Positions 4,911 to 64,000 of a stretch of 64,000 nucleotides of DNA are shown piece after piece. Source of the DNA: Escherichia coli. Its GTDB lineage: Bacteria > Pseudomonadota > Gammaproteobacteria > Enterobacterales > Enterobacteriaceae. Made by a program: the position numbers and the translations under genes. Each line of letters opens with the position of its first letter. The first letter of the stretch is position 1. Under the pieces are notes generated by a model. The model did not search any database. It had not been told where the DNA came from and was given only the letters and a program-made list of their open reading frames with translations. The stretch lies in NCBI RefSeq assembly GCF_016026235.1, contig NZ_CP065613.1; one strand, 5' to 3'.

Positions 4911-6050
4911 ATGATCGATTATGAAGTATTGCGTTTTATCTGGTGGCTGCTGGTTGGCGTTCTGCTGATTGGTTTTGCAGTCACTGACGGTTTCGACATG
5001 GGGGTGGGCATGCTCACCCGTTTCCTCGGTCGTAACGACACCGAGCGTCGAATTATGATTAACTCCATTGCACCACACTGGGACGGTAACCAGGTTTGGC
5101 TGATCACCGCGGGCGGCGCACTCTTTGCTGCCTGGCCGATGGTCTATGCCGCTGCGTTCTCCGGCTTCTATGTGGCGATGATCCTCGTGCTGGCGTCTTT
5201 GTTCTTCCGTCCGGTCGGTTTTGACTACCGCTCCAAGATTGAAGAAACCCGCTGGCGTAACATGTGGGACTGGGGCATCTTCATTGGTAGCTTCGTTCCG
5301 CCGCTGGTAATTGGTGTAGCGTTCGGTAACCTGTTGCAGGGCGTACCGTTCAACGTTGATGAATATCTGCGTCTGTACTACACCGGTAACTTCTTCCAGT
5401 TGCTCAACCCGTTCGGCCTGCTGGCAGGCGTGGTGAGCGTAGGGATGATCATTACTCAGGGCGCAACCTATCTGCAAATGCGTACCGTGGGCGAACTGCA
5501 CCTGCGTACCCGTGCAACGGCTCAGGTGGCTGCGCTGGTGACACTGGTCTGTTTCGCACTGGCTGGCGTATGGGTGATGTACGGTATCGATGGTTATGTC
5601 GTGAAATCGACAATGGACCATTACGCAGCCTCTAACCCACTGAATAAAGAAGTGGTTCGTGAAGCTGGCGCATGGCTGGTTAACTTCAACAACACGCCAA
5701 TTCTGTGGGCTATTCCGGCACTGGGTGTGGTTCTGCCGCTGCTGACCATCCTGACTGCACGTATGGATAAAGCCGCGTGGGCGTTTGTGTTCTCCTCCCT
5801 GACGCTGGCCTGCATCATCCTGACAGCCGGTATCGCAATGTTCCCGTTTGTGATGCCGTCCAGCACCATGATGAACGCAAGTCTGACAATGTGGGATGCA
5901 ACTTCCAGCCAGCTGACGCTTAACGTCATGACCTGGGTTGCGGTGGTTCTGGTACCGATCATTCTGCTCTACACCGCCTGGTGTTACTGGAAAATGTTCG
6001 GTCGTATCACCAAAGAAGATATTGAACGTAACACCCACTCTCTGTACTAA
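4911..6050 (+). CDS. cydB: cytochrome bd-I ubiquinol oxidase subunit II
   Basis: 379-aa translation MIDYEVLRFIWWLLVGVLLIGFAVTDGFDMGVGML... recognised as CydB. Confidence 0.97.
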   Translation: MIDYEVLRFIWWLLVGVLLIGFAVTDGFDMGVGMLTRFLGRNDTERRIMINSIAPHWDGNQVWLITAGGALFAAWPMVYAAAFSGFYVAMILVLASLFFRPVGFDYRSKIEETRWRNMWDWGIFIGSFVPPLVIGVAFGNLLQGVPFNVDEYLRLYYTGNFFQLLNPFGLLAGVVSVGMIITQGATYLQMRTVGELHLRTRATAQVAALVTLVCFALAGVWVMYGIDGYVVKSTMDHYAASNPLNKEVVREAGAWLVNFNNTPILWAIPALGVVLPLLTILTARMDKAAWAFVFSSLTLACIILTAGIAMFPFVMPSSTMMNASLTMWDATSSQLTLNVMTWVAVVLVPIILLYTAWCYWKMFGRITKEDIERNTHSLY

Positions 6051-6064
6051 GTAAGGAGCTAAAA

Positions 6065-6178
6065 ATGTGGTATTTCGCATGGATTCTGGGAACGCTTCTT
6101 GCCTGTTCGTTTGGGGTAATCACCGCGCTGGCGCTTGAACACGTCGAATCAGGCAAAGCCGGTCAAGAAGACATCTGA
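6065..6178 (+). CDS. cydX: cytochrome bd-I small subunit CydX (37 aa), below ORF-track size cutoff
   Basis: ATG 6 nt after AAGGAG; translation MWYFAWILGTLLACSFGVITALALEHVESGKAGQEDI; single TM helix; position right after cydB. Confidence 0.85.
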   Translation: MWYFAWILGTLLACSFGVITALALEHVESGKAGQEDI

Positions 6179-6471
6179 TGAGTAAGATTATCGCGACCTT
6201 GTATGCGGTAATGGACAAGCGCCCCCTGCGGGCGCTTTCCTTCGTGATGGCGCTTCTGTTAGCAGGATGTATGTTTTGGGACCCATCTCGTTTTGCCGCG
6301 AAGACCAGTGAACTGGAAATCTGGCATGGTTTATTGCTGATGTGGGCCGTCTGTGCTGGTGTGATTCACGGCGTGGGCTTTCGTCCGCAGAAGGTTCTTT
6401 GGCAAGGGATTTTTTGCCCATTGCTTGCCGATATTGTTCTCATTGTCGGGCTGATTTTCTTCTTCTTTTAA
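6178..6471 (+). CDS. ybgE: small inner-membrane protein YbgE (cyd operon)
   Basis: 97-aa hydrophobic ORF overlapping the cydX stop; conserved synteny cydABX-ybgE. Confidence 0.85.
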   Translation: MSKIIATLYAVMDKRPLRALSFVMALLLAGCMFWDPSRFAAKTSELEIWHGLLLMWAVCAGVIHGVGFRPQKVLWQGIFCPLLADIVLIVGLIFFFF

Positions 6472-7717: not shown

Positions 7718-8146
7718 ATGGCCAGAGCGCGTGGACGAGGTCGTCGCGATCTCAAGTCCGAAATCAACATTGTACCGTTGCTGGACGTACTGCTGGTGCT
7801 GTTGCTGATCTTTATGGCGACAGCGCCCATCATCACCCAGAGCGTGGAGGTCGATCTGCCAGACGCTACTGAATCACAGGCGGTGAGCAGTAACGATAAT
7901 CCGCCAGTGATTGTTGAAGTGTCTGGTATTGGTCAGTACACCGTGGTGGTTGAGAAAGATCGCCTGGAGCGTTTACCACCAGAGCAGGTGGTGGCGGAAG
8001 TGTCCAGCCGTTTCAAGGCCAACCCGAAAACGGTCTTTCTGATCGGTGGCGCAAAAGATGTGCCTTACGATGAAATAATTAAAGCACTGAACTTGTTACA
8101 TAGTGCGGGTGTGAAATCGGTTGGTTTAATGACGCAGCCTATCTAA
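7718..8146 (+). CDS. tolR: Tol-Pal system protein TolR
   Basis: 142 aa; ExbD/TolR family; immediately after tolQ. Confidence 0.95.
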   Translation: MARARGRGRRDLKSEINIVPLLDVLLVLLLIFMATAPIITQSVEVDLPDATESQAVSSNDNPPVIVEVSGIGQYTVVVEKDRLERLPPEQVVAEVSSRFKANPKTVFLIGGAKDVPYDEIIKALNLLHSAGVKSVGLMTQPI

Positions 8147-8210
8147 ACATCTGCGTTTCCCTTGCTTGAAAGAGAGCGGGTAACAGGCGAACAGTTTTTG
8201 GAAACCGAGA

Positions 8211-9476
8211 GTGTCAAAGGCAACCGAACAAAACGACAAGCTCAAGCGGGCGATAATTATTTCAGCAGTGCTGCATGTCATCTTATTTGCGGCGCTGATC
8301 TGGAGTTCGTTCGATGAGAATATAGAAGCTTCAGCCGGAGGCGGCGGTGGTTCGTCCATCGACGCTGTTATGGTTGATTCAGGTGCGGTAGTTGAGCAGT
8401 ACAAACGCATGCAAAGCCAGGAATCAAGTGCGAAGCGTTCTGATGAACAGCGCAAGATGAAGGAACAGCAGGCTGCTGAAGAACTGCGTGAGAAACAAGC
8501 GGCTGAACAGGAACGCCTGAAGCAACTTGAGAAAGAGCGGTTAGCTGCTCAGGAACAGAAAAAGCAGGCTGAAGAAGCCGCAAAACAGGCCGAGTTAAAG
8601 CAGAAGCAAGCGGAAGAGGCGGCAGCGAAAGCGGCGGCAGATGCTAAAGCGAAGGCCGAAGCGGATGCTAAAGCTGCGGAAGATGCAGCGAAGAAAGCGG
8701 CTGCAGATGCGAAGAAAAAAGCAGAAGCAGAAGCCGCCAAAGCCGCAGCCGAAGCGCAGAAAAAAGCCGAGGCAGCCGCTGCGGCGCTGAAGAAGAAAGC
8801 GGAAGCGGCAGAAGCAGCTGCAGCTGAAGCAAGAAAGAAAGCGGCAACTGAAGCTGCTGAAAAAGCCAAGGCAGAAGCTGAGAAGAAAGCGGCTGCTGAA
8901 AAGGCTGCAGCTGATAAGAAAGCGGCAGCAGAGAAAGCTGCAGCCGACAAAAAAGCAGCAGAAAAAGCGGCTGCTGAAAAGGCAGCAGCTGATAAGAAAG
9001 CAGCGGCAGAAAAAGCCGCCGCAGACAAAAAAGCGGCAGCGGCAAAAGCTGCAGCTGAAAAAGCCGCTGCAGCAAAAGCGGCCGCAGAGGCAGATGATAT
9101 TTTCGGTGAGCTAAGCTCTGGTAAGAATGCACCGAAAACGGGGGGAGGGGCGAAAGGGAACAATGCTTCGCCTGCCGGGAGTGGTAATACTAAAAACAAT
9201 GGCGCATCAGGGGCCGATATCAATAACTATGCCGGGCAGATTAAATCTGCTATCGAAAGTAAGTTCTATGACGCATCGTCCTATGCAGGCAAAACCTGTA
9301 CGCTGCGCATAAAACTGGCACCCGATGGTATGTTACTGGATATCAAACCTGAAGGTGGCGATCCCGCACTTTGTCAGGCTGCGTTGGCAGCAGCTAAACT
9401 TGCGAAGATCCCGAAACCACCAAGCCAGGCAGTATATGAAGTGTTCAAAAACGCGCCATTGGACTTCAAACCGTAA
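8211..9476 (+). CDS. tolA: Tol-Pal system protein TolA (GTG start)
   Basis: 421 aa; N-terminal TM segment, long Ala/Lys/Glu-rich helical domain (AAEKAAADKKAA repeats), C-terminal globular domain. Confidence 0.95.
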   Translation: MSKATEQNDKLKRAIIISAVLHVILFAALIWSSFDENIEASAGGGGGSSIDAVMVDSGAVVEQYKRMQSQESSAKRSDEQRKMKEQQAAEELREKQAAEQERLKQLEKERLAAQEQKKQAEEAAKQAELKQKQAEEAAAKAAADAKAKAEADAKAAEDAAKKAAADAKKKAEAEAAKAAAEAQKKAEAAAAALKKKAEAAEAAAAEARKKAATEAAEKAKAEAEKKAAAEKAAADKKAAAEKAAADKKAAEKAAAEKAAADKKAAAEKAAADKKAAAAKAAAEKAAAAKAAAEADDIFGELSSGKNAPKTGGGAKGNNASPAGSGNTKNNGASGADINNYAGQIKSAIESKFYDASSYAGKTCTLRIKLAPDGMLLDIKPEGGDPALCQAALAAAKLAKIPKPPSQAVYEVFKNAPLDFKP

Positions 9477-11466: not shown

Positions 11467-12258
11467 ATGAGCAGTAACTTCAGACATCAACTATTGAGTC
11501 TGTCGTTACTGGTTGGTATAGCGGCCCCCTGGGCCGCTTTTGCTCAGGCACCAATCAGTAGTGTCGGCTCAGGCTCGGTCGAAGACCGCGTCACTCAACT
11601 TGAGCGTATTTCTAATGCTCACAGCCAGCTTTTAACCCAACTCCAGCAACAACTTTCTGATAATCAATCCGATATTGATTCCCTGCGTGGTCAGATTCAG
11701 GAAAATCAGTATCAACTGAATCAGGTCGTGGAGCGGCAAAAGCAGATCCTGTTGCAGATCGACAGCCTCAGCAGCGGTGGTGCAGCGGCGCAATCAACCA
11801 GCAGCGATCAAAGCGGTGCGGCGGCATCAACGACGCCGACAGCTGATGCTGGTACTGCGAATGCTGGCGCGCCGGTGAAAAGCGGTGATGCAAACACGGA
11901 TTACAATGCAGCTATTGCGCTGGTGCAGGATAAATCCCGCCAGGATGACGCAATGGTGGCATTTCAGAATTTCATCAAAAATTACCCTGATTCAACTTAC
12001 CTGCCAAACGCCAATTATTGGCTGGGTCAGTTAAACTACAACAAGGGTAAAAAAGATGATGCGGCGTACTATTTTGCTTCGGTAGTGAAAAACTATCCGA
12101 AGTCACCAAAGGCTGCTGATGCGATGTTTAAAGTCGGCGTCATCATGCAGGACAAAGGTGACACCGCAAAAGCGAAAGCCGTATACCAGCAGGTTATCAG
12201 TAAATACCCTGGTACTGATGGCGCTAAACAGGCACAAAAACGTCTGAACGCGATGTAA
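11467..12258 (+). CDS. cpoB: cell division coordinator CpoB (YbgF), TPR protein
   Basis: 263 aa with signal peptide, coiled-coil region and TPR-like C-terminus; last gene of the tol-pal cluster. Confidence 0.9.
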   Translation: MSSNFRHQLLSLSLLVGIAAPWAAFAQAPISSVGSGSVEDRVTQLERISNAHSQLLTQLQQQLSDNQSDIDSLRGQIQENQYQLNQVVERQKQILLQIDSLSSGGAAAQSTSSDQSGAAASTTPTADAGTANAGAPVKSGDANTDYNAAIALVQDKSRQDDAMVAFQNFIKNYPDSTYLPNANYWLGQLNYNKGKKDDAAYYFASVVKNYPKSPKAADAMFKVGVIMQDKGDTAKAKAVYQQVISKYPGTDGAKQAQKRLNAM

Positions 12259-12266
12259 TGCATAAC

Positions 12267-12300
12267 ACACGACCAGAAGTCGCATTATTTCTGGTCGTGT
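12267..12300 (+). other. stem-loop downstream of cpoB (possible terminator/attenuator, no clear U-tract)
   Basis: cacgaccagaa-gtcgcatta-ttctggtcgtg inverted repeat. Confidence 0.35.
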
Positions 12301-12422
12301 CGTGCGAATCATAAGCAGTTGAGTGATCTGCATCGAAATTTTTGTTGCGCTCAAGTCTGAAATCAGTAATATATGCCGCCGTTGCCACGGGATATCAAAC
12401 AAACCGAAAGCAACGAAAAAGT

Positions 12423-12498
12423 GGGTCGTTAGCTCAGTTGGTAGAGCAGTTGACTTTTAATCAATTGGTCGCAGGTTCGAATCCTGCACGACCCACCA
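12423..12498 (+). tRNA. lysT: tRNA-Lys (anticodon UUU)
   Basis: GGGTCGTTAGCTCAGTTGGTAGAGCAGTTGACTTTTAATCAATTGGTCGCAGGTTCGAATCCTGCACGACCCACCA; cloverleaf and CCA end. Confidence 0.97.
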
Positions 12499-12525
12499 AT
12501 CGCTAAGGTGGAAGCGGTAGTAAAA

Positions 12526-12598
12526 CGTGAAGGATAACGTTGCATCAGCAACGGCCCGAAGGGCGAGACGAAGTCGAGTCATCCTGCACGACCCACCA
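12526..12598 (+). repeat. spacer repeat copy 1 ending in a duplicated tRNA-Lys 3'-end fragment (..gtcatcctgcacgacccacca)
   Basis: about 72 nt, near-identical to copies at 12815-12885 and 13119-13189; last ~19 nt match the T-arm/acceptor 3' end of tRNA-Lys. Confidence 0.8.
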
Positions 12599-12633
12599 CT
12601 AACATAGTTAGTTGTAGTATCCAGCGTAGTATT

Positions 12634-12709
12634 GGGTGATTAGCTCAGCTGGGAGAGCACCTCCCTTACAAGGAGGGGGTCGGCGGTTCGATCCCGTCAT
12701 CACCCACCA
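12634..12709 (+). tRNA. valT: tRNA-Val (anticodon UAC)
   Basis: GGGTGATTAGCTCAGCTGGGAGAGCACCTCCCTTACAAGGAGGGGGTCGGCGGTTCGATCCCGTCATCACCCACCA. Confidence 0.97.
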
Positions 12710-12711
12710 CC

Positions 12712-12787
12712 GGGTCGTTAGCTCAGTTGGTAGAGCAGTTGACTTTTAATCAATTGGTCGCAGGTTCGAATCCTGCACGACCCACCA
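12712..12787 (+). tRNA. lysW: tRNA-Lys (anticodon UUU)
   Basis: identical to lysT copy. Confidence 0.97.
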
Positions 12788-12814
12788 GTTTTAGCATCGA
12801 AGACAGATGTTAAG

Positions 12815-12885
12815 CGTGTAGGATAACGTTGCGTCAGCAACGGCCCGTAGGGCGAGCGAAGCGAGTCATCCTGCACGACCCACCA
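12815..12885 (+). repeat. spacer repeat copy 2 with tRNA-Lys 3'-end fragment
   Basis: cgtgtaggataacgttgcgtcagcaacggcccgtagggcgagcgaagcgagtcatcctgcacgacccacca. Confidence 0.8.
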
Positions 12886-12936
12886 CTAATTACGGTGGGT
12901 TCGGTGGAAGTAGTTTGTAGTATCCAGCGCAGTATC

Positions 12937-13012
12937 GGGTGATTAGCTCAGCTGGGAGAGCACCTCCCTTACAAGGAGGGGGTCGGCGGTTCGATCCCGT
13001 CATCACCCACCA
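12937..13012 (+). tRNA. valZ: tRNA-Val (anticodon UAC)
   Basis: identical to valT copy. Confidence 0.97.
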
Positions 13013-13015
13013 CTC

Positions 13016-13091
13016 GGGTCGTTAGCTCAGTTGGTAGAGCAGTTGACTTTTAATCAATTGGTCGCAGGTTCGAATCCTGCACGACCCACCA
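13016..13091 (+). tRNA. lysY: tRNA-Lys (anticodon UUU)
   Basis: identical to lysT copy. Confidence 0.97.
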
Positions 13092-13118
13092 ATTTTAACA
13101 TCAAACTCAGATGTTAAG

Positions 13119-13189
13119 CGTGAAGGATAACGTTGCGCCAGCAACGGCCCGAAGGGCGAGCGAAGCGAGTCATCCTGCACGACCCACCA
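13119..13189 (+). repeat. spacer repeat copy 3 with tRNA-Lys 3'-end fragment
   Basis: cgtgaaggataacgttgcgccagcaacggcccgaagggcgagcgaagcgagtcatcctgcacgacccacca. Confidence 0.8.
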
Positions 13190-13237
13190 ATCTTAAAGAT
13201 TGGCCCCGAGTAAAAATCTTTCAGGTAACACCCGTAT

Positions 13238-13313
13238 GGGTCGTTAGCTCAGTTGGTAGAGCAGTTGACTTTTAATCAATTGGTCGCAGGTTCGAATCCT
13301 GCACGACCCACCA
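13238..13313 (+). tRNA. lysZ: tRNA-Lys (anticodon UUU)
   Basis: identical to lysT copy. Confidence 0.97.
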
Positions 13314-13346
13314 TCCTGAATGATTAAAGCAGCATAATCCCGCAAG

Positions 13347-13422
13347 GGGTCGTTAGCTCAGTTGGTAGAGCAGTTGACTTTTAATCAATTGGTCGCAGGT
13401 TCGAATCCTGCACGACCCACCA
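13347..13422 (+). tRNA. lysQ: tRNA-Lys (anticodon UUU)
   Basis: identical to lysT copy. Confidence 0.97.
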
Positions 13423-13699: not shown

Positions 13700-14743
13700 A
13701 TGAGCGTGATGTTTGATCCAGACACGGCGATTTATCCTTTCCCCCCGAAGCCGACGCCGTTAAGCATTGATGAAAAAGCGTATTACCGCGAGAAGATAAA
13801 ACGTCTGCTAAAAGAACGTAATGCGGTGATGGTTGCCCACTACTATACCGATCCCGAAATTCAACAACTGGCAGAAGAAACCGGTGGCTGTATTTCTGAT
13901 TCTTTGGAAATGGCGCGCTTCGGTGCAAAGCATCCCGCCTCTACGTTGTTAGTCGCTGGGGTGAGATTTATGGGAGAAACCGCCAAAATTCTCAGTCCGG
14001 AAAAAACAATTCTGATGCCGACACTTCAGGCTGAATGTTCACTGGATCTCGGCTGCCCTGTTGAAGAATTTAACGCATTTTGCGATGCCCATCCCGATCA
14101 TACTGTCGTCGTCTACGCCAACACTTCTGCTGCGGTAAAAGCGCGGGCAGATTGGGTGGTAACTTCAAGCATTGCCGTCGAACTTATTGATCATCTGGAT
14201 AGTTTGGGTGAAAAAATCATCTGGGCACCCGACAAACATCTGGGGCGTTACGTGCAAAAACAGACGGGCGCAGACATTTTATGCTGGCAGGGTGCCTGCA
14301 TTGTGCATGATGAATTTAAGACTCAGGCGTTAACCCGCTTGCAAGAAGAATACCCGGATGCTGCCATACTGGTGCATCCAGAATCACCACAAGCTATTGT
14401 CGATATGGCGGATGCGGTCGGTTCCACCAGTCAACTGATCGCTGCTGCGAAAACATTGCCACATCAGAGGCTTATTGTGGCAACCGATCGGGGTATTTTC
14501 TACAAAATGCAGCAGGCGGTGCCAGATAAAGAGTTACTGGAAGCACCAACCGCGGGTGAGGGCGCAACCTGCCGCAGCTGCGCGCATTGTCCGTGGATGG
14601 CCATGAATGGCCTTCAGGCTATCGCAGAGGCATTAGAACAGGAAGGAAGTAATCACGAGGTTCATGTCGATGAGAGGCTGCGAGAGAGGGCGCTGGTGCC
14701 GCTCAATCGTATGCTGGATTTTGCGGCTACACTACGTGGATAA
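13700..14743 (+). CDS. nadA: quinolinate synthase NadA
   Basis: 347 aa; [22 protein letters not shown]...; conserved Cys ligands; synteny nadA-pnuC. Confidence 0.95.
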
Positions 14744-14780
14744 CGAATAATAAGGCGTAACGTTACGCTTTGGGGGAAAG

Positions 14781-15500
14781 ATGGATTTTTTTAGTGTGCA
14801 GAATATCCTGGTACATATACCAATAGGGGCGGGCGGTTATGATCTCTCATGGATCGAAGCGGTAGGCACGATCGCCGGGTTGCTGTGTATTGGCCTTGCC
14901 AGTCTGGAGAAGATCAGCAACTACTTCTTTGGCCTGATCAACGTCACCTTGTTTGGCATTATTTTCTTTCAGATTCAGCTGTATGCCAGCCTGCTATTAC
15001 AGGTGTTTTTCTTTGCCGCGAATATTTACGGTTGGTATGCGTGGTCGCGACAAACCAGTCAGAACGAGGCGGAGTTGAAAATTCGCTGGTTGCCATTGCC
15101 GAAGGCGCTAAGCTGGTTGGCGGTTTGCGTTGTTTCGATTGGTCTGATGACGGTATTTATCAATCCGGTGTTTGCATTTTTGACCCGCGTGGCAGTCATC
15201 ATCATGCAAGCATTAGGATTACAGGTTGTAATGCCTGAACTGCAACCGGACGCTTTCCCGTTCTGGGATTCATGCATGATGGTGTTATCTATCGTGGCAA
15301 TGATTCTGATGACGCGTAAGTATGTGGAAAACTGGCTGTTGTGGGTGATTATTAACGTGATTAGCGTCGTTATTTTTGCACTTCAGGGCGTTTACGCCAT
15401 GTCTCTGGAGTACATCATCCTGACCTTTATTGCGCTCAACGGCAGCCGGATGTGGATCAACAGCGCACGTGAAAGAGGCTCACGCGCGCTGTCCCATTAA
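14781..15500 (+). CDS. pnuC: nicotinamide riboside transporter PnuC
   Basis: 239-aa polytopic membrane protein; 3' end overlaps convergent zitB by 4 nt. Confidence 0.93.
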
Positions 15501-16438
15501 TGGTGATGATGTGAATGGCCAGACACCCCTTCATTCAGGTGGCAGTCTGGCCCATGACAAGGTTGATATTCCATCTGAATGGTGGCGTGCTCAATCTGAT
15601 AGTGATCCATCAGGTAGTGTTGGATCTGATCCAACAAGGCATCGTGATCGTGTGGCGGGATCACCTGCACATGCAACGTCATCACCGGCTTCTCGCCTAC
15701 CATCCATACATGCACATGGTGCACATTGCGGACTTCCGGGATTTCCCGGCACATACGACGCTTCAGTTCAGCGATATCCAGCGATACCGGTGCACCCTCA
15801 AGTAATTCATTCACGCTATCTTTCAACAGTCGCCACGCGCTACGCAGAACCAGAAGCGACACCAGTATCGAGAGAATGGGGTCAGCAGGTGTCCAGCCGG
15901 TCCAGATAATAATCAACGCGGCAATAATAGCCCCAACCGAACCCAGCAGGTCCCCGAGCACATGCAGTGCCGCTGCGCGCACGTTGAGGTTTTTCTCTTC
16001 GCTGCCGTGATGAAGTAACCAGAAAGAAAGTATATTTGCCAGCAACCCAGCCACGGCAATTGCCATCATCATGCCGCCCTCGACCGGACGCGGCGTGCGG
16101 AAGCGTTCAATCGCCTCCCAGACAATCAAAATGGTAATTACCACGAGGGCGATGGCATTCACAAACGCCGCGAGCGTGGTCAGTCTTAGCCAACCGAAAG
16201 TGTGGCGAATGGTGGGAGGACGACGTGAAAATTGCACGGCGAGTAGGGCGAAAAGCAGGGCGGCAGTATCGGTCAACATATGACCCGCATCGGCCAGCAA
16301 AGCCAGAGAACCAGAAAGAAAACCACCAATGACTTCTACCAGCATAAACCCGGCAGTCACGCCGAAAGCATACAACAAGCGACGAGCATTATTATCTTCT
16401 GGCAGGTGTGAGGACGTGTGTGAGTGTGAGTGCGCCAT
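15497..16438 (-). CDS. zitB: zinc efflux transporter ZitB (cation diffusion facilitator)
   Basis: 313 aa; [11 protein letters not shown]... His-rich termini, CDF TM core. Confidence 0.93.
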
Positions 16439-45052: not shown

Positions 45053-45129
45053 GGCCCTTTAGCTCAGTTGGTCAGAGCGAGCGACTCATAATCGCCAGGT
45101 CGCTGGTTCAAGTCCAGCAAGGGCCACCA
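45053..45129 (+). tRNA. tRNA-Ile2 (anticodon CAU, lysidine-type; close relative of E. coli ileX)
   Basis: GGCCCTTTAGCTCAGTTGGTCAGAGCGAGCGACTCATAATCGCCAGGTCGCTGGTTCAAGTCCAGCAAGGGCCACCA; cannot fully exclude Met by sequence alone. Confidence 0.8.
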
Positions 45130-45130
45130 A

Positions 45131-45207
45131 CCACCACTAGCTCATCCGGATAGAGCATCAACCTTCTAAGTTGACGGTGCGAGGTTCGAGTCCTCGGTGG
45201 TGGGCCA
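45131..45207 (+). tRNA. tRNA-Arg (anticodon UCU)
   Basis: CCACCACTAGCTCATCCGGATAGAGCATCAACCTTCTAAGTTGACGGTGCGAGGTTCGAGTCCTCGGTGGTGGGCCA; cloverleaf folds, C1-G72 pair. Confidence 0.75.
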
Positions 45208-45209
45208 GC

Positions 45210-45285
<76 letters not shown>

Positions 45286-45288
45286 TAT

Positions 45289-45363
<75 letters not shown>

Positions 45364-46042: not shown

Positions 46043-46258
46043 ATGTATCAGATGGAAAAAATATCAACAGGCATTGCCTACGGCACCTCCGCCGGCAGTG
46101 CCGGCTACTGGTTTTTGCAGTGGTTGGATCAGGTCAGTCCATCACAGTGGGCTGCGATTGGTGTGCTGGGAAGTCTGCTTCTGGGGCTTCTGACTTATCT
46201 GACGAATCTGTATTTCAAAATAAGAGAAGATAAGCGTAAGGCTGCGAGAGGTGAATAA
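46043..46258 (+). CDS. S: phage-21-type pinholin S with dual start
   Basis: [71 protein letters not shown]; Met1 and Met4 give antiholin/holin starts; two TM segments. Confidence 0.85.
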
Positions 46259-46755
46259 TGTCGCCATCATTACGCAAGGCTGTTGCAGTTGCTATTGGTG
46301 GCGGGGCTGTTGCTATAGCATCTGTGTTAATCACTGGCCCAGGTGGTAACGATGGTCTGGAAGGTGTCAGCTACATACCATACAAAGATATCATTGGTGT
46401 ATGGACTGTATGTCACGGACACACCGGAAAAGACATCATGCCTGGTAAAACGTATACCGAAGCAGAATGCAAAGCTCTCCTGAATAAAGACCTTGCCACT
46501 GTCGCCAGACAAATTAACCCGTACATCAAAGTCGATATACCGGAAACAACGCGCGGCGCTCTTTACTCGTTCGTTTACAACGTGGGCGCTGGCAATTTCA
46601 GAACATCGACGCTTCTTCGCAAAATAAACCAGGGCGATATCAAAGGCGCATGTGACCAGCTACGTCGCTGGACATATGCTGGCGGTAAGCAATGGAAAGG
46701 GCTGATGACCCGTCGTGAGATTGAGCGTGAAGTCTGTTTGTGGGGGCAGCAATGA
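46258..46755 (+). CDS. R: SAR endolysin (lysozyme with N-terminal signal-arrest-release segment)
   Basis: weakly hydrophobic Gly/Ala-rich N-terminal segment [20 protein letters not shown] then lysozyme-like domain; ATG overlaps holin stop. Confidence 0.8.
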
Positions 46756-47222
46756 GCAGAGTCACCGCGATTATCTCCGCTCTGGTTATCTGCATCATCG
46801 TCTGCCTGTCATGGGCTGTTAATCATTACCGTGATAACGCCATTACCTACAAAGAGCAGCGCGACAAAAACGCAAGAGAACTGAAGCTGGCGAACGCAAC
46901 CATTACTGACATGCAGCAGCGCCAGCGTGCTGCTGATGCACTCGATGCTAAATACACGAAGGAGTTAGCCAATGCGAAAGCTGAAAATGATGCTCTTCGG
47001 CGCAAGCTTGATAATGGTGGTTGGGTGCTCGTCAAAGGAAAATGCCCTGTGCCATCCTCAGCCGAAACCTCCAGCGCCTCCGGCATGGGCAATGATGCCA
47101 CCGTCGAACTCTCTCCAGTTGCTGGACGAAACGTTCTCGGTATCCGGGACGGAATCATCAGCGACCAGACAGCATTGAGAATGCTTCAGGAGTACATCAG
47201 GATCCAATGCCTTGGGGGGTAG
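46752..47222 (+). CDS. Rz: i-spanin Rz
   Basis: [24 protein letters not shown]-terminal TM, coiled-coil periplasmic domain; follows endolysin. Confidence 0.8.
46972..47178 (+). CDS. Rz1: o-spanin Rz1, embedded in +1 frame within Rz
   Basis: [21 protein letters not shown] lipobox, proline-rich mature part ([18 protein letters not shown]). Confidence 0.8.
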
Positions 47223-57026: not shown

Positions 57027-58172
57027 ATGGCACAGGGCTTGCCTGTATCAAACGTTGTTAATGTTGATGTGATCATGTCGCCGCGTGCAGCATCAGGGCG
57101 AAATTTTGGTGCATTACTCATTCTCGGCCCGTCCACAATCATTCCGGTAAGTGAGCGCATTCGCCGTTATTCTGCTGCGGAAGATATTGGAAAAGATTTT
57201 GGCGTGGAATCACCAGAATATAAGGCTGCGCAGGTGTTTTTCTCACAATCACCGAAACCTCAGGAGGTTTTTGTTGGTCGTTGGGTGAAAACGAAGGGAG
57301 ACAGCGAACAGGCCACGCCTGAGACGCTGGAGCAGGCTGTGAATGCCATGCTTGATTATACTTCATGGTATGGGCTGGGGATTGCAGACGATGCAGATAT
57401 TCCGGATGCAGACTGGCTGAAAGTGGCTGCGGCGATCGAATCCTCTTCTGTAAGCCGTATTCTGGCGATTACGACAAGCGATGAGAAATGCCTGCAGACT
57501 GCATCCAGCGATGATTTGGCATCAAAACTGAAAACCGCCGGATATTCACGCAGTTTTATTCAGTATTCATCGGGTAATAAATACGCTGCGTTATCTGCAT
57601 TTGGCCGGGCATTCACGGTTAATTTCAATGGCAGTAATACCGCGATTACGCTCAAGTTTAAGCAGGAGCCGGGTGTCGGGTATGAAACACTGACAGTCAG
57701 CCAGGCATCGGCACTTGATGCAAAAAACTGCAATGTATTCGTGTACTACCAGAATGATACGGCTATCCTCCAGCAGGGAGTGATGGCTAACGGCGATTTC
57801 TTTGATGAACGCCACGGCCTGGACTGGTTACAGAATTATGTGCAGACCAACCTCTATAACCTGCTTTATACCAGCACCACGAAAGTACCCCAGAGTGAAG
57901 CCGGTATTACCCGACTGTTATCAAGTGTTGAAAAATCACTGGATCAGGCCGTTCAGAATGGACTGATTGCTCCGGGCGTATGGAACGGTGGCGACCTTGG
58001 TCAGTTGTCATCAGGTGACACGCTGCCCAAAGGTTATTACGTATACGCCCAGCCGCTGGATGAACAGGCACAATCAGAACGTGAAGCCCGTAAGGCTCCG
58101 GTGATTCAGGCTGCAATAAAACTTGCAGGCGCGGTTCATTACGCTGACGTACAGATTAACGTTGTTCGCTAA
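57027..58172 (+). CDS. putative tail sheath protein
   Basis: 381 aa, followed by a tube-sized protein, chaperone-sized protein and tape measure. Confidence 0.4.
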
Positions 58173-59256: not shown

Positions 59257-61209
59257 ATGAACGCCGAGACTATTAAAGATTTCCTCGTCTCGCTTGGCTT
59301 CAGTGTGGATGATGCAGGAGCGAAAAAGTTCGGTTCTGTCCTCGCCGGTACAACTGCAAATGTCATCAAAATGGGGCTGGCTGTTGAAGGAGCTGCGCTG
59401 TCCGTGGTGGCCTTCACGGCTAAGATCGCCTCCGGTCTGGATAATCTTTACTGGGCGTCACAGCGCACCGGCGCGACAGTCCAGGGAATTCAGTCTATTG
59501 GCTATGCGGTTTCGCAGGTTGGCGGCAGCGTGGACGCTGCGCGATCTTCTCTGGAAAGCCTCTCCCGGTTTATTCGTAACAATCCCGGTGCAGAAGGCTT
59601 TCTGAATCGCCTGGGCGTACAGACCCGTGATGCCAGCGGTAACATGCGTGACATGGCCGCTATTTTTACTGGTGTAGGCCAGAAGCTCAGCGGTATGCCG
59701 TATTACCGGGCTAACCAGTATGCGCAGATGCTGGGCATTGACGAAAATACCCTTATGGCTATGCGTCGCGGAGTGGGGCAGTTCAGCGCTCAGTATTCAG
59801 AAATGGTGAAAGCGATCGGATTTAATGCCGATCAGGCTGCCTTATCGTCAAACCGGTTTATGACCTCGCTGAAATCGCTCGGTGAAATGGCCGGGATGGC
59901 GCGGGACAAAATCGGATCGAATCTTGCGGACGGACTGGCGGGGCAGATTGATAACCTGCGCAAAAAGATAATTGAAAATTTTCCCAAAATTGAAGTCACC
60001 ATCACAAAGGTCATAAAGGGGATCCTCTGGCTGGGTGAGATAGTCGGGCGGGGTGCATTCCGGATAGTCGATGGTGTCGGAGATATCATCGAGTGGTGGG
60101 GGAAACTGGATGCCGAAACGAAAACCCTGATAGAGGTTATCGGCGGTCTGGTTGTCGCCATGCGGATACTTAACTCTACTTTCTGGATGTCACCTATAGG
60201 GCTGATTACCGGTCTGATCGTGGCTCTCGGTCTCTTGTGGGAAGACTACAAAACATGGAAAGAAGGCGGTAACAGTCTTATCGACTGGGAAAAATGGCAA
60301 CCAGCAATAGATAAAGCGAAGGATGCGATCACCTGGCTTCGTGATCACCTTCTGGAACTAAAAGATGGTGTTGGCGGCTGGCAAAATGCACTGGAAATCC
60401 TCGGTACATTCATCGCGGGTGTCTGGGTATCCAAGGTTCTGGGGGCTTTCGGGAAAATATCAGGTTTGCTGGTCCCGCCGTGGTTAAAAGGCTGGATGGC
60501 TTATGCTGCGTATTTGTACTCTGATCGCGAAAATATTGGTGCCAGTGCGAAGTCATCCTGGGATTACACGAAACAAAATATTGGAGGTTCATTGCGCTGG
60601 CTTGGCATTGATACCGATTTTGGTCGTAATCCTCATACCGTAAAAGGCGCAAATATTCAGTCAGATATTCCAGGTGCTGAGCCGGAACAACATGCGCAGT
60701 CTACGAAGCGTACTTTAGCCGATCGGAATAACAATCCAGGGAATATTCGCCCGGTGAGCGGTAAAGGGTTCCGGTTTTTCGAATCAGCTCTTGAGGGCTG
60801 GGAGGCGATGAAAAACCAGCTCATGCGTTACTTTACTGGGAAAACAACCGGACGGGCATTACAGACTATTCAGGATATTGTCAGTACCTGGGCCCCGGCA
60901 GGTGATAACAACGATCCGAAAAAGTATGCACAGGATGTTGCGAAATGGATGGGAGTATCACCGAATGCAATATTGAATCTTACAGATCCCCGGACTATGG
61001 GAGCATTGATGCAGTCGATGGCGCGCAAAGAAGGTTATTCAAACTGGAACAGCCCGCTGGCGTATCAGGCCGCCGCTGGCAACCTTAACCAGCAGACTGT
61101 TATAAATGTTCATGGAGTTAACAACCCTCAGGAGGCGGCTAATCTGATCGCTGACAAGCAGGGGGCTGTAAATGCCAGGGCGGTACAGCAATTGAAAGGA
61201 CCTGCGTAA
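59257..61209 (+). CDS. putative tail tape measure protein
   Basis: 650 aa, helical N-terminal half with central hydrophobic segments (LIEVIGGLVVAMRILNSTFWMSPIGLITGLIVALGLL). Confidence 0.45.
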   Translation: MNAETIKDFLVSLGFSVDDAGAKKFGSVLAGTTANVIKMGLAVEGAALSVVAFTAKIASGLDNLYWASQRTGATVQGIQSIGYAVSQVGGSVDAARSSLESLSRFIRNNPGAEGFLNRLGVQTRDASGNMRDMAAIFTGVGQKLSGMPYYRANQYAQMLGIDENTLMAMRRGVGQFSAQYSEMVKAIGFNADQAALSSNRFMTSLKSLGEMAGMARDKIGSNLADGLAGQIDNLRKKIIENFPKIEVTITKVIKGILWLGEIVGRGAFRIVDGVGDIIEWWGKLDAETKTLIEVIGGLVVAMRILNSTFWMSPIGLITGLIVALGLLWEDYKTWKEGGNSLIDWEKWQPAIDKAKDAITWLRDHLLELKDGVGGWQNALEILGTFIAGVWVSKVLGAFGKISGLLVPPWLKGWMAYAAYLYSDRENIGASAKSSWDYTKQNIGGSLRWLGIDTDFGRNPHTVKGANIQSDIPGAEPEQHAQSTKRTLADRNNNPGNIRPVSGKGFRFFESALEGWEAMKNQLMRYFTGKTTGRALQTIQDIVSTWAPAGDNNDPKKYAQDVAKWMGVSPNAILNLTDPRTMGALMQSMARKEGYSNWNSPLAYQAAAGNLNQQTVINVHGVNNPQEAANLIADKQGAVNARAVQQLKGPA

Positions 61210-61859
61210 TGGACTTTTTATCTGTTTTACTGCAGCAGCGAACCCGCTCAATAGGAATCATTATTCCTGATGTGGTTATTACCGAAAAGCACACTGACGC
61301 CTTGGAAATTACGGAACATCCGGTTGAACAGCCCACGAATGCTGGTGCCAGTGGTGAGGGCGCTGGTTACATATCAGAACACGCATTCAGGCGCCCTTCT
61401 GAGGTTGTGATGGAAACCGGTTTTTCCGGAGGCGGATCGCTGCTTGATTTTGCCAGTAACCTGACTGCTACCAGTTTACTGGGGCTGAGCCCGAAAGAAC
61501 TGTATCAGGAACTGCTTAACTTGCAGCGGAATCGTATTCCTTTCGATGTGACAACCGGCAAGCGTATTTACAACAATATGTTGATAAAAACGCTGGAGGT
61601 CACGACCGATAAGAGTAGTGAAAATGTGCTTCTGGCGACACTTACCCTCAGGGAAGTAATTATTACCTCCACGCAGTCAGTCAGGGTTGCCCCGAAAAAC
61701 AATATGACCGAGGGAGTCGGAACGTCTGCTGTGCAGAATACAGGCACCAAAACAACGGTGCCGCCGAATAATTCCATTCTGAAATCGCTGCCACAGATGG
61801 CGCAAGAAGGTATCTCCACTGTTGATGGGTATTTGAGCAATTTATTTCTGGGAAGGTGA
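61209..61859 (+). CDS. putative tail/baseplate protein
   Basis: 216 aa, stop/start overlap with tape measure. Confidence 0.3.
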   Translation: MDFLSVLLQQRTRSIGIIIPDVVITEKHTDALEITEHPVEQPTNAGASGEGAGYISEHAFRRPSEVVMETGFSGGGSLLDFASNLTATSLLGLSPKELYQELLNLQRNRIPFDVTTGKRIYNNMLIKTLEVTTDKSSENVLLATLTLREVIITSTQSVRVAPKNNMTEGVGTSAVQNTGTKTTVPPNNSILKSLPQMAQEGISTVDGYLSNLFLGR

Positions 61860-61862
61860 TTC

Positions 61863-62165
61863 ATGAAAGCCGTAGAAATCCCACTGGTTGCTGACAATCA
61901 GACTTTTGCCACCACAATTAACGGTTCGGTTTATCACCTGTCTGTCATCTGGCGAGGCGAGTGCTGGGTTCTGGATCTTGCTGACAGCAATGGCTCCGCC
62001 ATTATATCAGGTATACCGATGATTACGGGGGCTGACCTGCTGGCACAGTATCGATATATGGATCTGGGTTTTTCTCTGGTGGTGCTCTGCGACGTGGCAG
62101 GGCAGGAGAATCCGACGCAATTCGATCTTGGAACGCTCTCACACCTCTATGTTTTCACGGAGTAA
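61863..62165 (+). CDS. hypothetical tail protein
   Basis: 100 aa. Confidence 0.3.
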   Translation: MKAVEIPLVADNQTFATTINGSVYHLSVIWRGECWVLDLADSNGSAIISGIPMITGADLLAQYRYMDLGFSLVVLCDVAGQENPTQFDLGTLSHLYVFTE

Positions 62166-62167
62166 CA

Positions 62168-63208
62168 ATGTCGAAAAACTGGATGCGTCACTTTGAATTA
62201 TTGCTTGTTGATGATAAGGGCGACGGGATAAAAATTTCTGAGCTTAAAGTCACTTTCAATATTCAGAAAATGCCTGCGACCATATTTAATGGATTTGTTG
62301 GAAATTTTAAGGTTTATAACCTGTCTCCTACCACTCAGAACCGGATTATGCAGAAGGAGTTTTCGCGTATACAGGTTATTGCCGGATACAAGGGGCAACC
62401 GGATGCAGCAGGTAATTATCCTGATGAAAACGTTGGTATGATATTCAATGGAGATATCCGTTTTACTGTCACTGGTAAAGATAATGCCACAGACAGTTGG
62501 ATCATGTTGCAGTGTATTGACAGCTGGGAAGGCCACCTGAACGCAAGTGTGAAAACCACAGTGGCTGCTGGCTGGAAGTACAGCGATCTTTTCAGTCTGG
62601 GTATGAAATCATTCGAACCATATGGCATCGAATCCGGTGCAGTTCCTGACATGCCTGAAACGGTATTTCCCCGAGGTCGCGTTGTTTATCAAAACACATC
62701 AAGGTTGATGAATCATATCGCAGGGCAGTGTAAAGCTAACTGGTGGTATGAAAATAATCTGGTAAATATTGTTCCTGAAGATAAATATATTGGTGTTGCT
62801 ACGGTGTTGAATGCTAACACCGGGCTTATCAGTATGCCACAGCAGACGATGGGAGCTGGCGTAAATGTCAGATGTCTGATTAATCCAAATATTAAGCTCG
62901 GTGGGCTTATTCGTCTGGATCAGGCATCTGTATACCGTGCCTCTTTGAGTAATGACCAGGTAGCGAAATCGCCAGCACGACTGGATGAGTCTGAAAGCGA
63001 CGGTAATCTCTACGTTAACGGTCTGCCAGGCATGTCACAGCCTGCCAGCATTAATACTGACGGTGATTACATTGTGGGCAGCATTGATTATACTGGCGAC
63101 ACCCGAGGGCAGGCGTGGTATATGGACCTGCTTTGCCTGGCTAAAGGGAGTAAAAGTTTACTCACTCCTGATACGATAGCGAAAATAAGTGGGGTACCAA
63201 ATGCTTAA
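62168..63208 (+). CDS. putative baseplate protein
   Basis: 346 aa. Confidence 0.3.
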   Translation: MSKNWMRHFELLLVDDKGDGIKISELKVTFNIQKMPATIFNGFVGNFKVYNLSPTTQNRIMQKEFSRIQVIAGYKGQPDAAGNYPDENVGMIFNGDIRFTVTGKDNATDSWIMLQCIDSWEGHLNASVKTTVAAGWKYSDLFSLGMKSFEPYGIESGAVPDMPETVFPRGRVVYQNTSRLMNHIAGQCKANWWYENNLVNIVPEDKYIGVATVLNANTGLISMPQQTMGAGVNVRCLINPNIKLGGLIRLDQASVYRASLSNDQVAKSPARLDESESDGNLYVNGLPGMSQPASINTDGDYIVGSIDYTGDTRGQAWYMDLLCLAKGSKSLLTPDTIAKISGVPNA

Positions 63209-63443
63209 ATGGATCTTATTACTGGTATATTTTGTGACTTTGTCTTCTGTGGCTGCGGTAACATGCACCACTTCAAATACAGGAACAACTTACTGTACTG
63301 GTACAGACAGTAGTGGTTCTACAGTTAAAACAGAATCTTATACAACCAATACAGGTACTACGTATACCACAGGAACGATTAATGGGAGTGCAGTACATCG
63401 TGAATGCCAGGCGACCAATACTGGCACAACGTACTGTAATTAA
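63189..63443 (+). CDS. small secreted Thr/Gly-rich repeat protein
   Basis: signal peptide MLKWILLLVYFVTLSSVAAV then three TNTGTTY(C/T) repeats with spaced Cys. Confidence 0.4.
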   Translation: MGYQMLKWILLLVYFVTLSSVAAVTCTTSNTGTTYCTGTDSSGSTVKTESYTTNTGTTYTTGTINGSAVHRECQATNTGTTYCN

Positions 63444-63478
63444 TTTTTTTAAGAAATCAGCTATAAGAGACATTTGTA

Positions 63479-63820
63479 ATGAAGAAAATATTCCTTCTCG
63501 CAGTGTTGACTCCAACAATTTGTGTAGGTGGAACGCTGAATGATTTTTTTGGACTGCACACCTCACTGGCTGATAACTACATCATCAAGAGAGAGATCAC
63601 AAATAGGGCTGTTTCTAATGCGGCTATGGACGCTGTATCTAATGGTCGTGAGGCGGATTTTGGTGATGAGTTAATGAAAGAACATGGTGATAGTTATGGT
63701 GAAATAGCTCTGCGTCAACTCGCTTTCGAGTGCGGTTATTCTTTTTCCGATAGTGGCCAATCTCTTACGATTCTAAAAAAAGAAGAATGTAGATTGGTGC
63801 TATCTGAAAATAAGAAATGA
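63479..63820 (+). CDS. small secreted hypothetical protein
   Basis: signal peptide MKKIFLLAVLTPTICVGG; own RBS; AT-rich, lower GC than neighbours. Confidence 0.4.
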   Translation: MKKIFLLAVLTPTICVGGTLNDFFGLHTSLADNYIIKREITNRAVSNAAMDAVSNGREADFGDELMKEHGDSYGEIALRQLAFECGYSFSDSGQSLTILKKEECRLVLSENKK

Positions 63821-63882
63821 GTTCGCTAAATTAACTTTTCACGGTAATTGCTTCTATCACCATGGAAAGAAAACTAGCTACA

Positions 63883-63912
63883 TAAAACCCGCCTTCGAGT
63901 GGGTTTTTTGCT
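63883..63912 (+). terminator. rho-independent terminator
   Basis: aaacccgcc-ttcgag-tgggtttttt. Confidence 0.6.
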
Positions 63913-63928
63913 TTCTGGAGGCATATGA

Positions 63929-64000
63929 ATGCCAGTTTCTTTAAGCGCTCAACTTGGTAGCAAAGAACAGGCCGATGTAAGACTTGCTGGCTCTGTCATG
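63929..64000 (+). CDS. 5' end of a further prophage gene (truncated by window end)
   Basis: GGAGG RBS then ATG; MPVSLSAQLGSKEQADVRLAGSVM... continues past window. Confidence 0.35.
   Translation, partial: MPVSLSAQLGSKEQADVRLAGSVM

Follow-up and report, generated by a model that had tools for sequence, protein, structure and literature searches.

The window analysed in our study is a stretch of 64,000 nucleotides (nt) from the Escherichia coli contig NZ_CP065613.1, and the end of the window carries the tail and baseplate module of a prophage; all positions refer to this window unless another locus is named. Between the genes for the baseplate hub and the central spike of this prophage, we characterized two small open reading frames (ORFs) on the + strand, ORF1 and ORF2, which very likely encode genuine exported accessory cargo. 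The tail module runs in the order sheath (57027-58172), tube, chaperone, tape measure (59257-61209), Dit-like protein, plug, hub, ORF1 and ORF2, and in the identical locus of E. coli VL40, ORF2 is followed on its 3' side by a membrane-puncturing spike (250 amino acids, aa) and then by the sheath initiator, baseplate J, wedge and fibre genes. An earlier reading of the sequence (hereafter the first-pass annotation) had set the two ORFs after the baseplate genes; their presence and strand were confirmed, but the baseplate module encloses them, with the hub on one side and the central spike on the other. It had also begun ORF1 at a GTG (63189), as an 84-aa frame. This start was replaced, since all eight homologues align from an ATG at 63201 that overlaps the hub stop codon (ATGCTTAA) and opens an 80-aa frame (MLKW...).

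On sequence grounds, the element is a SEN34-like (Brunovirus) temperate myovirus prophage of Enterobacterales, an assignment based on the Pfam families E217_gp31_N, Phage_Tube_PhiTE, Pam3_gp18 and E217_GP41 in homologous loci (the E217_GP41 matches of the hub being faint) and on a tblastn search with the hub. The N-terminal and Apex domains of the spike were also found in homologous loci, and the tape measure, which is intact in the window, is annotated with a lytic transglycosylase domain. The positions of the features are collected in Table 1.

Table 1. Features at the hub-spike interval of the prophage; a slash marks a predicted cleavage site.
Feature	Positions	Strand	Basis
Baseplate hub, 346 aa; left anchor of the slot	62168-63208	+	phrog_196 'baseplate hub', E=7e-79
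ORF1 precursor, 80 aa; Thr-rich, four-Cys mini-protein, predicted to be secreted	63201-63443	+	homologues of 79-81 aa; synonymous (pS) and nonsynonymous (pN) divergence
ORF1 signal peptide, 19 aa, MLKWILLLVYFVTLSSVAA/V; predicted signal peptidase I site, no lipobox	63201-63257	+	read from sequence
ORF1 mature peptide, 61 aa	63258-63440	+	predicted six-strand antiparallel beta meander
ORF2 precursor, 113 aa; predicted periplasmic, all-helical	63479-63820	+	phrog_13007; signal peptide ~63479-63529
Intrinsic-terminator-like hairpin and T run; right boundary of the slot	63884-63913	+	terminator scan; conserved in relatives
gp138-type membrane-puncturing spike, start only (leaves the window); right anchor of the slot	63929-64000	+	VL40 annotation; Pfam in homologous loci

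Conservation and predicted export of ORF1 and ORF2

Eight homologues of ORF1, 79-81 aa long and 54-93% identical, were identified in Salmonella, Yokenella, the NCBI assembly L013 and several metagenome or read-archive contigs, and across homologues of this identity four cysteines (C22, C32, C69 and C79) and the repeat motif (TGTTYC) are invariant. The TNTGTTY repeat that the first-pass annotation had noticed was borne out together with these cysteines: NTGTTY occurs three times in ORF1, at residues 26, 50 and 73, with a period of ~24 aa, and a 6-mer was present three times in 83 of 20,000 shuffles that preserved the composition of the mature peptide. Because the DNA of the three units differs at synonymous sites, the repeat does not stem from a recent DNA duplication. 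The mature peptide has 61 residues, of which 36% are threonine and nearly none are hydrophobic or cationic; its predicted fold (pLDDT > 90) contains three hairpin turns formed by the NTG residues, and Cys3-Cys13 and Cys50-Cys60 (mature numbering) stand in cross-strand register. In diverged copies, synonymous sites are saturated (pS ~0.7-0.85) while pN is low (~0.3-0.45), which indicates that the frame is under purifying selection.

No match to ORF1 was found in Pfam, PHROG, NCBIfam, PADLOC or the sequence profiles of PDB. An exhaustive profile search of 1.84 billion representatives with the alignment of the mature peptide returned only three, all of 79-81 aa, and ORF1 is therefore placed outside any larger known family. 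It is important to consider that genomic annotations have passed this gene over: no coding sequence is annotated for ORF1 in the two RefSeq E. coli records that we inspected (VL40 and BCE049), and it is uncalled in the Salmonella assembly. Such unannotated copies lie at 12102-12344 of the VL40 locus (L001), at ~602-844 of locus L022 and at 7723-7965 of the Salmonella locus (L007). The most divergent relative of ORF1 was seen in a metagenome contig (SRR14663240, locus L011, 145-2920); it is 81 aa long, has NSFGQTYC in place of NTGTTYC, and lies outside a hub-spike interval, among small ORFs with membrane segments or signal peptides (35, 61, 51, 128 and 131 aa), in an element without a match to any known phage.

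ORF2 belongs to phrog_13007, a PHROG family without assigned function, which it matches over residues 1-113 out of 116 profile positions (E=1.9e-38); the diverged ORF2 of L013 matches the same family (E=1.6e-18). Its homologues, found in E. coli/Shigella, Salmonella, Pantoea, Serratia and metagenomes, make up about nine of 5.8 billion protein clusters, and nothing significant was found for it in Pfam, NCBIfam or PADLOC, nor anything in the PDB sequence profiles. Synonymous divergence is high (pS ~0.8) against a pN of ~0.23, and for ORF1 and ORF2 together pN ranges from 0.23 to 0.48. The mature part (96 residues) was modelled by AlphaFold2 with a pLDDT of 92.2 and a pTM of 0.84 as three long helices and a short N-terminal pair, and of its two conserved cysteines one lies in helix 2 and the other in the last helix. 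As far as sequence comparison reaches, ORF1 and ORF2 are tiny prophage families of Enterobacterales without a Pfam match. In searches of 50,697 phage records with tblastn, ORF1, ORF2, the diverged ORF2 of L013 and the divergent ORF1 relative (P0016) all remained without a match.

The signal peptides, which the first-pass annotation had assigned to both proteins, were read by eye from the sequences and alignments, and the prediction holds for each of them: n, h and c regions are followed by an AXA-type site. In ORF1, the segment begins with MLK, continues with a hydrophobic core and ends at VAA/V (AS/, AG/ or AT/ in orthologues); in ORF2, the site reads CVG/G in the window and VFA/G or ASA/G in orthologues. 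In both families the signal region varies, freely so in ORF1, whereas the mature part is conserved. The residue at position -1 before the first cysteine is T, E, S or M in ORF1 and ORF2, so that neither has a lipobox, and a lipoprotein was rejected on these grounds.

That the two ORFs are chance frames in an untranslated spacer, or a fragment of a structural gene, is hardly credible. PGAP, the prokaryotic genome annotation pipeline, leaves ORF1 uncalled in the E. coli records inspected, Shine-Dalgarno sequences are weak, and other frames hold overlapping ORFs. Nevertheless, frame, length, cysteines and motif are kept at 50-65% identity in the face of saturated synonymous change, the Yokenella homologue has been annotated by NCBI, and the predicted folds of both proteins exceed a pLDDT of 90. 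The scenario in which they would be the N-terminal part of a tail fibre gene, separated from it by a frameshift, is excluded, given that the next gene is the gp138-type spike and that a terminator hairpin stands between.

The hub-spike slot and its occupants in related elements

Among 5426 complete E. coli genomes, the cassette was found over at least 80% of the query in 5, and a sixth genome holds a copy truncated by an insertion sequence (IS). About 45 other E. coli genomes match only at the two ends, over ~100 nt on the hub side and ~70 nt where the spike begins, and in the slot between these ends they carry a phrog_3443 gene (111 aa) and a DUF4282 membrane protein. One strain with this alternative cargo, CFS3292, is 96% identical to the window in the hub and 99% identical in the spike. 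Homology with CFS3292 ends ~54 nt before the hub stop, so the last ~55 nt of the hub gene (from ~63154) belong to the exchanged cassette; the right breakpoint coincides with the terminator-like hairpin. The GC content is 0.37-0.43 across 63200-63900 vs ~0.49 upstream (60000-63100), in agreement with the lower-GC DNA reported in the first-pass annotation. Its view of the two genes as acquired cargo likewise stood up to comparison with related prophage loci, where different slot genes sit between flanks of 96-99% identity, in DNA of lower GC and ahead of a closing terminator.

The hairpin is GC-rich, reads AAAACCCGCC-TTCGAG-TGGGTTTT and is followed by a T run. It has the form ACCCGCC-loop-GGCGGG (ACCCGCC..GGCGGGTTTTTT), with the T run and then GGAG and the ATG of the spike, and lies 15-19 nt before the spike start. 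A hairpin with a T run is present in 11 of the 14 related loci described below, whatever their cargo, with variable loops and a stem of eight pairs, two of which show compensatory changes; besides the window copy, it was located just upstream of the spike in L002, L003, L004, L006, L007, L010, L013, L016, L017 and L019. Since it is kept in 11/14 loci, the hairpin belongs to the slot and not to the present cargo. A terminator placed within an operon of late structural genes implies that transcription reads through it (antitermination) during lytic growth, and the hairpin may, in addition, serve as a recombination anchor for cargo exchange. An Rfam scan of 61000-64000 gave sub-threshold matches only, and a megablast of the same interval against phage genomes gave none.

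We compared the slot in 14 loci from E. coli, Salmonella, Yokenella, Pantoea, Klebsiella phages, Yersinia phage YP3, SEN34, Burkholderia phage Magia and metagenome contigs. A small protein with a signal peptide was present in the slot of all 14, and in 13 of them directly 3' of the hub, which we call position 1; this position holds an ORF1-type gene in 5 loci and a phrog_3443-type gene in 8. In Magia, the slot contains an unrelated signal-peptide protein on the opposite strand. Gene 20 of SEN34 was deposited as a truncated product of 77 aa, and a TTG 108 nt upstream restores a signal-peptide protein of 113 aa. The proteins of the phrog_3443 family (among them gene 20 of SEN34 and gene 20 of Klebsiella phage RCIP0034) resemble ORF1 in that they are small, carry a signal peptide and are encoded at the same position by genes that abut or overlap the hub gene, and the two types are swapped between near-identical prophages. 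However, they are unrelated to ORF1 in sequence, longer (110-113 aa) and far more widespread; they have one N-terminal and one C-terminal cysteine and no assigned function.

The later slot genes vary, and include ORF2, DUF4282, a Phd/Fic toxin-antitoxin pair, DUF4236 and others. ORF1 occurs without ORF2 in Yokenella (L003) and in L004; ORF2 occurs without ORF1, with phrog_3443 in its place, in Pantoea (L006) and in L010; and in L013 both are present as a diverged pair (49% identity for ORF1 and 32% for ORF2). From the sequences compared, the slot is an exchange hotspot, that is, a site of recombination. In distant loci, ORF1 is 49-55% identical to the window copy and the hub 54-67%, and the two values move together, a co-divergence that suggests long co-residence. 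A link between the position-1 allele and the type of spike was considered and rejected, because the same spike (99% identical) occurs with either allele.

Some of the individual occupants are worth recording. In E. coli CFS3292 (L002, 6100-6814), the phrog_3443 protein is a secreted one of 111 aa and the DUF4282 protein has two transmembrane segments; the Phd/Fic(Doc) pair of the Salmonella locus (L007, 8512-9332) comes after ORF1 and ORF2; L004 carries a pair of 257 and 123 aa (5225-6366; phrog_17809 and phrog_5176); and a Klebsiella phage (L016, 4638-5204) encodes a 188-aa protein with a HEAGH metalloprotease-like motif.

The slot may reach well beyond these elements. In E217, a lytic phage of Pseudomonas, the tip (gp43) is attached straight to the hub trimer (gp41), and the account of the solved virion names no gp42 among the proteins built (PMC10329688); gene 42, which by its number lies between those of gp41 and gp43, suggests that a non-structural hub-spike slot extends far beyond enterobacterial prophages. 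The direct contact of hub and tip in E217, the place of gp42 outside the described virion proteins and the signal peptides of ORF1 and ORF2 all agree with the first-pass annotation that the two products are unlikely to be virion components.

The same prophage is decaying elsewhere. VL40 has an IS150 in the tape measure and an IS2 in baseplate J (insertions and cargo at 7905-9274, 14186-15648 and 21186-22949 of L001), an O121 strain (L023) has IS911 and IS600 around the cassette, and in FDAARGOS_943 an IS1 interrupts the matched region. VL40 also carries ipaH, a type III secretion system E3 ligase effector gene, immediately past its tail-fibre genes and beside ybhB/bioA. The overall pattern is Shigella-like.

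Other features of the window include a complete lysis cassette of the prophage at 46043-47222, with a holin-like ORF of 71 aa, an endolysin-like one of 165 aa and an Rz-like one of 160 aa, in which an Rz1-like lipoprotein ORF is embedded (46972-47178); with this cassette at another place, the candidacy of ORF1 or ORF2 as a lysis or spanin gene was rejected. The prophage also has a tRNA cluster (45053-45363) with Met/Ile-like CAT, Arg-TCT, Thr-TGT and Gly-TCC anticodons. In ORF1, ACA accounts for 10 of 23 threonine codons (43%) vs 19% in the neighbouring structural genes; the prophage's own tRNA-Thr(UGU) reads this codon, and the match may be a coincidence. A chromosomal tRNA array of the host lies upstream of the prophage (12423-13422) and consists of seven genes, tRNA-Lys(UUU) alternating with tRNA-Val(UAC).

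Candidate functions of the exported cargo

The best reading of ORF1 and ORF2 is that they are two independent accessory genes of the moron type in the hub-spike hotspot. Morons are recognized as extra DNA between conserved genes, with a deviant GC content and a terminator, all of which were found here; in the sense of Juhala and Hendrix, a moron also has its own promoter and is expressed from the repressed prophage (PMC3594210). The kind of cargo is already familiar, in that small envelope proteins are encoded in tail operons of other phages. The closest example is HK97 gp15, a tail-operon moron and envelope exclusion protein that blocks DNA entry in a tail-dependent manner (Juhala et al. 2000; Cumby et al. 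2012; review PMC3594210). Like the slot genes, it is a small gene of deviant GC between conserved tail genes of a temperate coliphage, with a closing terminator and an envelope product. In contrast, gp15 is an inner-membrane protein of the YebO family, encoded between the tail chaperone and tape-measure genes behind a demonstrated promoter, while ORF1 and ORF2 are unrelated to it in sequence, occupy the hub-spike slot and are predicted to be soluble proteins exported by Sec.

In the mechanism that we propose, both products would be exported by Sec and cleaved by signal peptidase I, disulfides made by DsbA would probably stabilise both proteins, and the site of action would be the periplasm or envelope rather than the virion. 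Presumably expressed in the lysogen, they may shield the lysogen or the infected cell from an incoming phage at the step of periplasmic penetration. ORF2 could be a small helical binder or inhibitor of a tail part that cleaves peptidoglycan or punctures the envelope, for instance the lytic transglycosylase domain of the tape measure, and ORF1 could be a disulfide-stapled beta-sheet, rich in threonine and tyrosine, that binds a component of the tail tip or the envelope. Envelope protection or exclusion is favoured because the position-1 occupants are exported, other cargo is defence-like (the Phd/Fic toxin-antitoxin in the same slot), and the flanking genes encode parts that cross the periplasm, namely the hub, the spike and the tape measure. 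Superinfection exclusion as the function, argued by analogy, is a tentative attribution that we regard as rather doubtful; the explanation as a whole, an exported pair of the moron type acting in periplasmic exclusion, is the best of those considered and falls a little short of being evenly balanced.

Several points weigh against exclusion by a moron-type pair. The start of ORF1 overlaps the hub stop, which suggests that ORF1 is co-translated with the late structural genes and not expressed from the repressed prophage. A promoter scan found no convincing sigma-70 promoter upstream of ORF1; the sole consensus match, at 63066-63094 inside the hub gene, is fewer than expected by chance from shuffled sequence. 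None of the relatives examined leaves position 1 empty, a pattern closer to that of a conserved phage function with alternative alleles than to that of an optional moron. In the defence-system database PADLOC-DB v2, no match below E=0.04 was obtained for ORF1 and none for ORF2. For the inhibitor role of ORF2, neither ORF2 nor nine relatives gave a match to PF07007 (for ORF2 as query, none even at E<=10), and hhalign of the ORF2 alignment against E. coli YecT, a confirmed member of PF07007 (E=1.4e-17), gave a probability of 0.6%.

Part of this evidence is shared by the main rival to exclusion, in which the position-1 gene is a periplasmic helper of the late lytic cycle, made with the baseplate and existing as alternative alleles (ORF1 here and phrog_3443 elsewhere). 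Such a helper might ready the envelope or peptidoglycan or guard it, modulate lysis, or spare the progeny from debris or from an already-infected cell. In almost every locus, the starts of ORF1 and phrog_3443 touch or overlap the hub stop, as fits translational coupling; no promoter is evident; the exported protein follows the hub directly in 13/14 relatives, sewage phage isolates among them; and the divergence of ORF1 follows that of the hub. On the other hand, two unrelated families, and a third in Magia, fill the same position and are swapped between near-identical phages, a behaviour seldom expected of an essential helper; the lysis genes lie in another part of the window, and we know of no phage assembly or lysis step that requires such a protein. 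We consider a lytic helper unlikely on balance. The remaining rivals (host fitness, orphan immunity and a bacteriocin) are lesser ones.

Special attention was given to the fold of ORF2. Its structural neighbours in AFDB50 include one (TM-score 0.88, 30% identity) labelled as an LprI lysozyme-inhibitor domain, and in view of the PF07007 and YecT results given above, the likeness to LprI is a structural lead from the predicted model and not a membership. A phmmer search for solved relatives of YecT found none. PF07007 is described with four conserved cysteines, and ORF2 has two. Proteins of the LprI/DUF1311 group (Mycobacterium tuberculosis LprI, Salmonella ScwA and immunity proteins of type VI secretion systems, T6SS, such as Etsi4) are small three-helix periplasmic proteins with disulfides, of low GC and horizontally acquired, which ORF2 may resemble in these respects, and they are linked to antagonism of lysozyme or peptidoglycan hydrolases; unlike them, the ORF2 family is without a PF07007 match. 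Against lysozyme-like effectors, DUF1311/LprI proteins confer immunity in the periplasm (PMC12135965, PMC12981562), a literature that lends weak support, by analogy, to the inhibitor idea for ORF2. The same lead bears on a further alternative, that ORF2, and possibly ORF1, is an orphan immunity protein against a toxin acting in the periplasm, such as a lysozyme-like effector of T6SS or a colicin or pesticin-type muramidase. The cell-wall effectors of T6SS do have small cognate immunity proteins with signal peptides in the periplasm, those of the DUF1311/LprI type included, but no effector gene is adjacent in any locus, the ORF2 family was not seen beside T6SS genes, and the test for PF07007 membership was negative, so that we judge this alternative improbable.

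Cargo for host fitness or virulence, unrelated to phages, would alter the envelope in other ways, for example in peptidoglycan homeostasis, stress tolerance, adhesion or interaction with an animal host. The same type of prophage carries virulence-type cargo, with ipaH in VL40, PagK in Salmonella (L007) and Mig-14 in Yokenella (L003), and a precedent exists in Salmonella ScwA, a periplasmic protein of low GC that was acquired horizontally, is stabilised by disulfides, contains an LprI domain and modulates the levels of lytic transglycosylases (PMC7933661). Nevertheless, ORF2 has no detectable sequence relation to LprI or ScwA, both families are confined to the phage slot and not found at chromosomal loci, and the slot is also filled in hosts associated with plants or the environment (Pantoea, Yersinia ruckeri and Burkholderia). 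A role of this kind is decidedly unlikely.

A bacteriocin-like product, raised in the first-pass annotation, was disfavoured by our analysis, which spoke neither for nor against the receptor mask and the adhesin fragment offered beside it. As a pair in which ORF1 is a secreted peptide and ORF2 its immunity protein, it would account for a small, cysteine-stabilised, secreted and repeat-containing ORF1, and for the adjacency of the two genes in E. coli, in Salmonella and in the diverged pair of L013. It is, however, very improbable. Each of the two genes occurs without the other (ORF1 in L003 and L004, ORF2 in L006 and L010), which makes an obligate pair of bacteriocin and immunity protein unlikely; the signal is of the Sec type and not a double-glycine leader, and no exporter or lysis gene accompanies them. 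Immunity to a peptide acting from outside is usually membrane-bound, whereas ORF2 is predicted to be soluble and helical, and the mature ORF1 peptide nearly lacks the hydrophobic or cationic residues. A class II microcin was rejected for the Sec-type signal on ORF1, the lack of an exporter gene in any locus and the independence of ORF1 and ORF2.

Other phage proteins offer partial parallels to the exclusion reading. T4 Spackle (Sp, gp61.3), from a phage with a contractile tail, is a small periplasmic helical protein with a signal peptide that inhibits the gp5 tail lysozyme of superinfecting phage. ORF2 is of similar size, exported, contains cysteines and is predicted to be helical, and the tape measure of its own phage has the lytic transglycosylase domain mentioned above; no similarity to Spackle in sequence or fold was found. 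Cor (phi80, N15 and T1) and Llp (T5) are FhuA-blocking lipoproteins that prevent superinfection and protect progeny. They are small exported phage proteins, as ORF1 and ORF2 are predicted to be, and Cor is encoded next to tail genes, but ORF1 and ORF2 have no lipobox. The tail fibres of the present phage type suggest lipopolysaccharide as the receptor, which a periplasmic protein could not mask.

Finally, exclusion can be put in a more specific form, which is speculative and unlikely. The position-1 genes, of the ORF1 and phrog_3443 types, would then form, in myoviruses like SEN34 and E217, a class of alleles that has gone unrecognised so far and encodes periplasmic tail-tip blockers, small disulfide-stapled proteins that bind the incoming complex of hub, spike and tape measure in the periplasm and abort penetration, and a swap of alleles would reset the specificity of exclusion. 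ORF1 would represent a new mini-fold, a coreless single-layer beta meander with 36% threonine and two hairpin disulfides, and ORF2 a new family of inhibitors of tail-borne peptidoglycan hydrolases.

Implications for the phage family and its hosts

Limited literature searches found no description of the two protein families, of the mini-fold of ORF1, or of a delimited hub-spike hotspot with an exported protein in 14/14 relatives; those for STY1065/STY2022 and for the cargo of SEN34 returned nothing relevant. At the least, annotation has overlooked a conserved gene of 80 aa in those RefSeq records of E. coli that were checked. Should the slot genes turn out to be ordinary morons with another role in the envelope, their value would lie mainly in cataloguing, and the hotspot, with its conserved anchors (the 3' end of the hub gene and the terminator hairpin), would be open to systematic mining. 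If the slot does encode periplasmic exclusion factors, then E. coli, Shigella, Salmonella and Klebsiella would possess in it a compact, exchangeable module that determines specificity in their resistance to phages with contractile tails. Exclusion of this kind would be relevant to the choice of therapeutic phages, and it would provide two very small, confidently foldable proteins as probes of the passage of the myovirus tail tip through the periplasm.

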